Shown piece after piece: positions 1,402 to 2,715 of a DNA stretch of 5,115 bases. This DNA comes from a virus (lineage: Duplodnaviria; Heunggongvirae; Uroviricota; Caudoviricetes), in IMG/VR virus record IMGVR_UViG_2541047434_000040. One strand, 5' to 3'. Each line of letters begins with the position of its first letter. Position 1 is the first letter of the stretch. The position numbers were made by a program, and so were the translations under genes. Under the pieces are notes generated by a model. The model saw nothing but the letters and a program-made list of their open reading frames with translations. It did not search any database and was not told the origin of the DNA.

Positions 1402-2715
1402 TCATTCTCCTGTTCTGCCTGTATCACTGCCCACTTCATCCAGCCCCTTAACATCCTGCCACGGCCCGTCACCAAACCTGACCTGCAAATGCCGAAACAG
1501 CCCCTGAACCTGTGTGGCATCTTTGGGGTCAAGAAAGGTCAGTCCGGTGATGAGTGCGCCATCTGTATCCGGGAACCAGCCATTGCTGTTTGTCTCAATA
1601 ATGCTCGCCGGCCCCAGACGAAAACGGATTTGTGTCTCCCCCGGGTCGCCCTTCGGTCCCTGAGGTCCGGTTGCCCCCACCGGGCCAGCCGCACCTGTTT
1701 CTCCTTTCGGTCCCTGTGGGCCTGCCGGGCCTGCTGCCCCGGTGTCTCCCTTTGGACCCTGTGGACCTGCATTTCCCGTCAGACCGGTCTCTCCCCGCTC
1801 TCCCCTGTCACCTTTCGGCCCCTGCGGGCCTGCCGGACCAGCATCACCTGCCGGTCCCCGTTCGCCGGTTGCCCCTGCCGGGCCGGTGTCGCCACGCTCT
1901 CCTTTATCTCCCTTCGGCCCCTGAGGACCCGCGGGCCCCTGTTCCCCCTTTGGCCCGGGAGGTCCCACCACGGTGGGGATTCGGTTTACGGCTTCTTCCG
2001 CCGCTATCCTGCTTTGTTCCGCTGACTGTGCGCTTTCTGCTGACTCCCGGGCTTTTTCTGTTGCGGTCGTTGCATCCCTGGCTGCATTACCGGCTGCACT
2101 TTCTGCCGTCTTTCTTGACAATTCAGCTTCTGCTGCACTTTGTGATGACTCACTGGCTTTTTGAGCGGCCGCAGAAGCCGAGGACGAGGACGCCTCCTCT
2201 GACTGCTTTGCAGCGGCTGCACTTTCTGCCGCCTGCCGGGCTGACTCCGATGCATCCCCTGCTGAAGTGTCAGCATTTGCCGCGCTCTCTTCTGCCTGAC
2301 TGGCTGATATGCCGGCATTCCTCGCGGACGTCTCCGCCTCTCCGGCATTCTTCTTCGCCTCCTCAGCGTGACGCGCCGCTTCTTCCACCATCAGTTCAAA
2401 ACGACGCAGTGCCTCCGGCCGGACGTCATCCTCCGACATGGCACCGAGAAAATCATTCAGCGTCCCCGGTTGAGAATCTTCATACACGGTGATGGTCCCG
2501 GCATGTGACGGCGGGAACCCTTCCACCAACAGAATGACGCTGTACTGACCGTACTCAACGTCCATGCTGTAACGACCGGCTTCATCCGGATTTTCAGAGG
2601 CCACCGTGTTCACCACCACCGTGCTGCTGGTCCGTCTGGCTTTCAGTTGAATGGTGCAGTTCTCTACCGGTTTTCCTGTGCCGTCTTTCAGTACACCTGA
2701 AATCTTTACTGCCAT
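1402..2715 (-). CDS. stf: Side tail fibre protein (Stf homologue) with an Ala/Ser/Glu-rich low-complexity region, a 37-triplet collagen-like Gly-X-Y domain and a ~75-aa C-terminal domain
   Basis: N-terminal ~110 aa ([26 protein letters not shown]...[28 protein letters not shown]) are near-identical to lambda Stf N-terminus from memory. Residues 251..361 are uninterrupted GXY triplets ([19 protein letters not shown]...). G-rich RBS before ATG at 2713..2715. Confidence 0.92.
1633..1965 (-). repeat. Collagen-like coding repeat: imperfect ~21-bp direct repeats (CCYTTYGGNCCCTGNGGNCC on the plus strand) encoding GPQGPKG motifs
   Basis: At least six copies visible at about 1650, 1703, 1748, 1811, 1911 and 1947; this accounts for the stop-free overlapping shadow ORFs on both strands. 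Confidence 0.8.

Follow-up and report, generated by a model that had tools for sequence, protein, structure and literature searches.

An EPclA-type collagen fibre gene in a lambdoid prophage at yehV

The fibre gene and its domains

The stretch of DNA analysed here, the window, comprises 5,115 nucleotides of virus record IMGVR_UViG_2541047434_000040 (IMG/VR) and represents the left end of a lambdoid prophage at yehV, collinear with VT1-Sakai (Sp15 of Escherichia coli O157:H7 Sakai). Its minus strand carries, in order, J, lom, a fibre gene, a small open reading frame (ORF) and the prophage end; the corresponding order in lambda is J, lom, stf, tfa, and lambda-like I, K and L genes lie upstream in VT1-Sakai. 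The subject of this analysis is the fibre gene (1402..2715, minus strand), a complete side tail fibre gene with the architecture of EPclA, the collagen-containing protein described by Ghosh et al. (2012, PLoS One 7:e37872, PMC3368898). The first 1262 bases of the window are identical to VT1-Sakai, and the fibre region is 98.4% identical at the DNA level to the gene annotated there as H0004, 'tail fiber protein'.

According to the ORF list and its translation, the fibre frame runs uninterrupted from an ATG start to a TGA stop and encodes 437 residues, with a G-rich ribosome-binding stretch directly before the ATG. Three Pfam domains are found in this frame, whereas a Pfam search of the overlapping ORFs at 1117..2025 (plus), 1632..2492 (plus) and 2004..2348 (minus) returned zero matches. 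Codon differences from the VT1-Sakai allele comprise 11 synonymous and 5 non-synonymous changes when read in the fibre frame. Because the Pfam domains occur in this frame only and the differences are mostly synonymous, the reading frame is real and not an artefact. An earlier sequence-only reading of the window had divided the protein into ~110 N-terminal residues that are essentially lambda Stf, a low-complexity Ala/Ser/Glu linker, 37 uninterrupted Gly-X-Y triplets at residues 251–361 and a distinct C-terminal domain of ~75 residues. It had proposed a Pfam search for collagen and phage-fibre domains as a check; PF08400, PF01391 and PF06820 are all matched, and its division of the protein holds up throughout, with the exception of the character of the linker.

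Residues 1–91 (2443..2715, minus) constitute an N-terminal collar, or tail-attachment, domain homologous to lambda StfN. The prophage tail fibre N-terminal family PF08400 (PfN) is matched over residues 1–133 (E = 6.3e-69, 230 bits against a cut-off of 26.6), and identity to lambda orf-401 (Stf) is 92.3% over residues 1–91, 92.5% over residues 1–93 (86/93) and 90% over residues 1–110, with BLASTP similarity stopping near residue 160. The N-terminus also matches Protein Data Bank (PDB) entry 9e7m, 'Tail fiber protein' (E = 2e-51). Residues 92–101 (2413..2442, minus) align with AMTEDDARPE at positions 92–101 of lambda Stf and are assigned, by this homology, as a short flexible linker. A structure of this N-terminal domain, in place on the virion of Ur-lambda, dates from 2025 (PDB 9E7M/9MGH). 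In that cryo-electron microscopy structure, residues 1–91 are the collar domain touching gpV and gpM, and three collars merge via 10-residue linkers into one coiled-coil fibre. Four such trimeric fibres are present per Ur-lambda virion; they bind OmpC, accelerate adsorption 10- to 30-fold and are non-essential.

The segment following the linker is rich in Ala, Ser and Glu (32, 17 and 16%, respectively, of residues 111–250), as the sequence-only reading had noted, and to that extent the description as a low-complexity region stands. The term 'linker' does not, if it is taken to mean a flexible spacer. A sharp 3.5-residue (heptad) periodicity is present over residues 95–250, with a power of 4.0–4.8 against a 95% shuffle limit of 1.5–1.7 (2.5–3 times the limit), and Ser and Ala return at fixed heptad positions over ~20 heptads of the same region. 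AlphaFold2 predicts, for the monomer, a helix at residues 95–244 with predicted local distance difference test (pLDDT) scores of 75–94. In EPclA, experiments identified the corresponding 'low-complexity' region as a trimeric coiled coil with a melting temperature of ~50–52°C (Ghosh et al. 2012), and residues 135–250 of the window fibre amount to 116 residues, matching the common-form length of the EPclA coiled-coil module (PCoil). Given the heptad periodicity, the confident AlphaFold2 helix and the experimental trimeric coiled coil of EPclA, this segment (residues ~102–245; 1981..2412, minus) is a structured rod and not a flexible spacer. The model helix ends at residue 244 and a hinge is seen in electron micrographs of recombinant EPclA (rEPclA), suggesting that residues 246–250 (IPTVV; 1966..1980, minus) form the junction or hinge between the coiled coil and the collagen helix.

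The collagen triple-helix domain occupies residues 251–361 (1633..1965, minus) as a single unbroken run of 37 Gly-X-Y triplets, counted by regular expression and corresponding to ~32 nm. Among 2000 shuffles of the protein, the longest such run reaches 6 triplets (mean 2.7); with a Gly content of 14%, 37 glycines in phase would arise by chance with a probability of ~2e-32. Proline fills 49% of the X positions, and the most frequent triplets are GPK, GPA and GPQ. The Pfam collagen family PF01391 is matched with an E-value of 3e-18 (65.8 bits against a cut-off of 27.2), and there are collagen matches in the PDB, including BclA (1wck, E = 3.5e-8). Circular dichroism (CD) and electron microscopy of EPclA, whose collagen domain is likewise 111 residues long, further support the assignment. 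The C-terminal 76 residues (362–437; 1405..1632, minus) form the PfC domain, matched by PF06820 (Phage_fiber_C) over residues 363–426 with an E-value of 6.5e-36. PfC trimerises in EPclA, and in the window fibre it would be the C-terminal trimerisation knob and probable distal tip.

Kinship with EPclA and other fibres

Five features that define EPclA are present in the window gene: (i) a PF08400 N-terminus; (ii) a heptad-periodic Ala/Ser-rich region; (iii) a single unbroken collagen domain; (iv) a PF06820 C-terminus and (v) a place among the tail genes of an E. coli lambdoid prophage. The common form of EPclA is 437 residues long, with a 116-residue PCoil and a 111-residue collagen module (Col) between PfN and PfC, and the Sp15 copy, ECs2941, is included in Table 2 of the original description (Ghosh et al. 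2012). The window fibre shares with ECs2941/H0004 its architecture, its lengths and its J–lom–fibre–mini-PfC context at the yehV end, where mini-PfC denotes the small downstream gene; it is identical to H0004 at 432 of 437 residues, and the 5 that set it apart from the Sp15/VT1-Sakai copy amount to no difference of kind. The window gene is thus a further allele of the published EPclA-type collagen side tail fibre family and already known in that sense. The sequence-only reading had placed it in a described class from pathogenic E. coli and called it notable rather than new, which is borne out by EPclA. The family was described and characterised in 2012 and is common in Shiga toxin (Stx)-converting phages and enterohaemorrhagic E. 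coli genomes, so the window adds nothing new in this respect.

Much of the expected behavior of the window fibre can be read from experiments on rEPclA, produced from ECs2717. This protein, studied by CD, SEC-MALLS and electron microscopy, is a trimer that dissociates on denaturation, and its collagen CD signal melts cooperatively at 42°C (Ghosh et al. 2012). The same study found that PfC trimerises alone and renucleates the collagen helix after melting, and that rotary-shadowed molecules appear in the electron microscope as dumbbells of 55–62 nm, with a hinge between a thicker coiled-coil stalk and a thinner collagen stalk.

Comparison with Ur-lambda Stf (split into orf-401 and orf-314 in lambda PaPa) indicates where the two fibres part. 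The collar and linker are ~92% identical, both genes come after J and lom, and the Ala/Ser-rich coiled coil starts alike, with 75% identity over 160 residues. Ur-lambda Stf then continues with a long coiled coil, a hinge, a distal coiled coil and a T4 gp37-like OmpC-binding tip, and needs Tfa (orf-194), whereas in the window fibre a shorter coiled coil, collagen and PfC take the place of everything past residue ~160. No Pfam match to PF03406 (phage-fibre repeat 2) or of gp37 type is found in the window fibre. The position of lambda tfa (orf-194, Caudo_TAP) is likewise occupied in the window not by Tfa but by the 89-residue PF06820 gene.

Two other fibre types share parts of this plan. EPclB, from short-tailed Stx2 phages (L0121 of 933W, ORF67/ECs1228 of Sp5), is likewise built from PfN, PCoil, Col and PfC modules, and an 89-residue PfC-only ORF (ORF68) comes after it, as in the window. 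Immunogold labelling places EPclB at the tail end of Sp5 virions, where it is essential and where BamA/YaeT has been proposed as the receptor. It differs from the window fibre in its length of 645 residues, its two collagen domains split by a Pf2 repeat (the first with one interruption) and its mounting on the tail of a podovirus. Fibres of the EPclD type, from Shigella and E. coli, are 86–93% identical to the window fibre over the first ~250 residues and the collagen run and share the J–lom–fibre context, but have a Peptidase_S74 intramolecular-chaperone C-terminus and, downstream, a Gp38_N-like gene in place of mini-PfC.

The window fibre is one representative of a large pool. At least 80% of the segment containing the fibre and mini-PfC genes is found in 141 phage records, mostly of Stx-converting phages, and in 693 of 5426 complete E. 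coli genomes (~13%), a single genome having as many as 17 matching places when partial matches are included. The exact 437-residue sequence is absent from a collection of ~15 billion proteins, although relatives at 98–99% identity are plentiful; this absence reflects nothing beyond allelic difference. Among complete genomes, the nearest allele differs at 7 residues, and the differences are concentrated in the coiled coil, at residues 138–174. Such clustering suggests gene conversion between paralogous prophage copies, or mosaicism. Shiga toxin and effector genes are carried between E. coli strains by the Stx-converting phages and their lambdoid relatives to which fibres of this class belong, so the way these fibres attach matters for how virulence genes spread. 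In addition, collagen helices that are stable although they lack hydroxyproline are rare in nature, and as an example of one the class is of interest for protein engineering.

Assembly model and its alternatives

We propose that three copies of the gene product assemble into a side tail fibre of the EPclA class, belonging to a lambda-like, long-tailed prophage at yehV (Sp15/VT1-Sakai type), and assign this reading a probability of about 0.9. In near-identical proteins, the trimer, the collagen helix, the coiled coil, PfC trimerisation and the dumbbell shape have been demonstrated, as has collar docking in lambda. For the window fibre itself we infer the docking position, the binding role of the tip and the mode of expression.

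In this model, the collars (residues 1–91) would dock at the tube/tip junction in the manner of Ur-lambda Stf on gpV and gpM, and three collars would converge via their 10-residue linkers. The chains would then form a trimeric Ala/Ser-rich coiled coil of ~20 nm (residues ~102–245) and, after a short hinge, the ~32 nm collagen triple helix of 37 triplets. Lacking hydroxyproline, this helix would be stabilised by proline in the X positions and by its ~22% charged residues. PfC is expected to trimerise, set the register of the three chains and nucleate zipper-like folding of collagen from the C-terminus; at the fibre's distal end, it may make the first reversible contact with the cell surface, speeding adsorption.

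The gene stands last but one in the late operon (J, lom, fibre, mini-PfC). An intrinsic-terminator-like hairpin lies between lom and the fibre start (2732..2753, minus), identified by scanning as an 8-bp stem with 7 GC pairs followed by TTTTTTG, and a second strong terminator-like hairpin lies at 3410..3429 (minus), so that the two bracket lom. The window has one extra A/T relative to VT1-Sakai at 3404, near the second hairpin. This arrangement fits a scheme in which lom can be expressed alone and the fibre gene needs antiterminated read-through. Since the fibre gene lies behind both hairpins, the fibre would be made only from Q-antiterminated late transcripts after induction. This view of late-operon antitermination draws on knowledge of lambda.

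Several observations weigh against the proposed role. Ghosh et al. (2012) state that no experiment places an EPclA-type protein on the virion of a long-tailed phage and that its receptor is not known. The gpV and gpM genes of the window prophage, which would encode the docking partners, lie outside the window. The PfC domain modelled alone by AlphaFold2 is of low confidence (pLDDT 65 and predicted template modelling score 0.47, from a 23-row alignment), and a Foldseek comparison of this model with the PDB found nothing at E < 1. In the full-length monomer model, PfC scores a pLDDT below 50, and a PfC profile search of PDB sequences produced chance matches only. With a fold of low confidence and no structural relative, PfC has only a putative binding role. 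Finally, two frameshifts disrupt J (3448..5115, minus), a gene that lambda-type infection requires. Compared with VT1-Sakai and with the intact J of strain 272, there is a 1-nucleotide insertion near 4468 and a 1-nucleotide deletion near 4029, ~440 nucleotides apart, so that J is spread over three frames. The first shift brings stops into frame, and J would lose ~340 C-terminal residues, including the receptor-binding domain. The window copy of the fibre may never be mounted on a particle of its own prophage. J may be a real pseudogene in a defective prophage or may reflect sequence error; the fibre gene is intact either way.

The state of J gives rise to the alternative that survives best, namely that the fibre gene is an intact spare part of a defective prophage, kept as a store of sequence for recombination or put to use by other lambdoid prophages in the same cell. 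The insertion near 4468, with the stops that follow it, and the deletion near 4029 favor such a history, as do the up to 17 segment-matching places per E. coli genome, the >90% identity of EPclA copies across prophages and the mosaicism suggested by the clustered differences of an allele not otherwise present in the ~15 billion proteins. On the other hand, the fibre ORF is unbroken, most of its codon changes relative to Sp15 are synonymous (11 versus 5), and errors of sequencing or assembly could account for both J indels. We regard this alternative as possible though unlikely; it bears on the use of the window copy and not on the identity of the protein.

A far less probable alternative is that the protein is a bacterial collagen mimic serving the host cell in adhesion or immune evasion, like Scl1/Scl2 of Streptococcus pyogenes, rather than a virion part. 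A collagen-like sequence in a pathogen invites this comparison, and a role for the bacterium itself was not excluded by Ghosh et al. (2012). Scl1/Scl2 and BclA of the Bacillus anthracis exosporium share with the window fibre hydroxyproline-free Gly-X-Y helices and a globular trimerisation domain. They differ in being cell- or spore-surface proteins, and not phage tail parts, with signal or anchor sequences and unrelated non-collagen domains. The window protein has no signal peptide or anchor at its N-terminus, which is instead the Stf collar domain, and its gene lies in the late tail operon behind terminators; known EPclP expression is tied to phage induction, and EPclB sits on virion tails. 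The last alternative, that the ORF is no true gene and was merely opened by GC-rich low-complexity repeats, could appeal to the several long ORFs that overlap the region in other frames and on the opposite strand, but is already refuted by three independent domain matches confined to the fibre frame, with the 92.5% identity to a solved lambda domain, the chiefly synonymous substitutions and the prior expression and characterisation of a near-identical protein all pointing the same way.

Stalk and tip variation and the downstream mini-PfC gene

The sequence-only reading had proposed that the length of the collagen stalk and the tip are the parts most likely to set receptor specificity, and had suggested comparing triplet number across strains. 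We made this comparison over 79 cluster representatives with PfC tips. Triplet number does vary, from 4 to 37, and the length of the coiled coil varies as well. The PfC tip, by contrast, has zero indels and only 18 of its 76 columns are variable, a proportion no higher than in the N-terminal anchor. Within this family the tip does not vary as a specificity-determining region would, and the comparison lends no support to the proposal that stalk length and tip set receptor specificity; the pattern fits variable reach with a conserved tip. Changes of tip come about by exchange of the entire C-terminal module.

The changes in fibre length among relatives are accounted for by direct repeats in the DNA. 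Six dispersed copies of a 23-nucleotide motif encoding GPQGPKG-type triplets were found by repeat search at 1646..1965, with spacings that are multiples of 9 nucleotides. These copies are substrates for in-frame gain or loss of triplets, and deletion variants are present among the homologues. In the coiled-coil region, a pair of 21-nucleotide direct repeats (2091..2111 and 2214..2234, part of a family within 2091..2234) is 95% identical and 123 nucleotides apart. This spacing equals the 41-residue deletion of 396-residue relatives, and AESAA recurs at residues 163 and 204. A 41-residue deletion is not a multiple of 7 and would move the heptad phase by one residue. It also departs from the published rule for PCoil, according to which length differences are whole heptads.

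Relatives of PfC are few, with only 49 matches among 1.84 billion representative proteins, mostly fragments of the same family. Phmmer searches with PfC return multi-repeat matches in large Big_7 proteins. A PfC motif resembles a strand motif that is repeated in Big_7 Ig-domain proteins, for example IQIRVGDGPWLDV in P0174, the relationship being unproven. An identification of PfC as a Big_7 Ig-like domain (PF17957) was considered and is not established, as hhalign aligns only a 25-residue 'QIRVGDGPW' stretch, at 12% probability, and Foldseek has no match at E < 1. In the literature on PF06820, Phage_fiber_C and L0122, we found nothing past Ghosh 2012 and Mondal 2016.

The mini-PfC gene (1131..1400, minus) encodes 89 residues with a second, diverged PfC domain, as indicated by PF06820 (E = 1.3e-35), by the Prokaryotic Genome Annotation Pipeline (PGAP) annotation of the same ORF and by the junction sequence. 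Its ATG is 1 nucleotide past the fibre TGA, and a GGAG lies 6 nucleotides upstream, within the last codons of the fibre gene. The last 62 residues correspond to PF06820 and are 40% identical to the PfC of the fibre. The exact protein is present on ~1000 contigs, and the family is restricted to prophages of Escherichia, Shigella and Citrobacter. Relative to the Sp15 allele, all five differences in the PfC part are synonymous, and three non-synonymous differences fall in the N-terminal 27 residues. Mini-PfC also follows, again after 1 nucleotide, a PfC-tipped fibre with just 8 triplets. It is found after PfC-tipped fibres and not after S74-tipped ones, where a Gp38_N-like gene stands instead, and this exchange argues that mini-PfC belongs to the tip cassette and that a tip and its downstream partner are exchanged together. 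In three Shigella loci (L004–L006, 3001..4834), the fibres share the N-terminal 250 residues, followed by 9 triplets and a Peptidase_S74 end, and then Gp38_N-like and DUF4376 genes.

The mini-PfC gene is the sole part of the locus with room for novelty. One idea is a two-gene tip, in which translationally coupled mini-PfC binds the PfC knob as an adaptor, cap or host-range-modifying partner rather than acting as a sequence reservoir. Mini-PfC has a conserved Cys-rich N-terminal tail. In keeping with this idea, it accompanies PfC-tipped fibres in Stx phages of the long-tailed as well as the short-tailed kind, it gives way to a Gp38_N-like gene where the tip is of S74 type, and its PfC part shows synonymous differences only from the Sp15 allele. 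In Sp5, however, deletion of the homologue ORF68 did not prevent plaque formation or lysogenisation on K-12, and ORF68 was proposed to be a sequence reservoir (Mondal et al. 2016). We consider a two-gene tip doubtful on balance, and clearly less likely than the spare-part history discussed above.

A programmed frameshift fusing the fibre to mini-PfC was also considered and rejected. It would require a +1 shift at GAA-TGA-C, where tRNA-Glu cannot re-pair, and no frameshift signal was found by Mondal et al. Ahead of its ATG, mini-PfC has a further 44 codons of open frame, as would occur by chance ~12% of the time. Fusion proteins in which the fibre is joined to the downstream PfC, giving two tandem PfC domains, do exist (P0024/P0025, 494 residues, and P0065), each on one to four contigs; they are explained by a 1-nucleotide deletion just before the stop and are probably mutations or sequencing errors. 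The spacing of GGAG, 6 nucleotides and ATG favors ordinary termination–reinitiation coupling over frameshifting. Inspection of the sequence also led us to reject mini-PfC as a lipoprotein, since its 'LCGC' is lipobox-like but the segment before it, MNILKKLMQ[C/R], lacks the length and the apolar character of a signal peptide.

No Rfam families or tRNAs were detected in the window. Positions 1..~290 are host DNA beside btsS/yehU, with the yehV attachment site at ~270–289. A DinI-like gene lies at 515..763 (plus) with a promoter-like site at 449–478, and the equivalent of the VT1-Sakai SOS box is at ~482–501. In another E. coli prophage (locus L007, 2217..3197), a gene for a type III effector of the SseK/NleB type comes after the pair of fibre and mini-PfC genes, which fits the presence of cargo genes at the fibre-distal end of lambdoid prophages.

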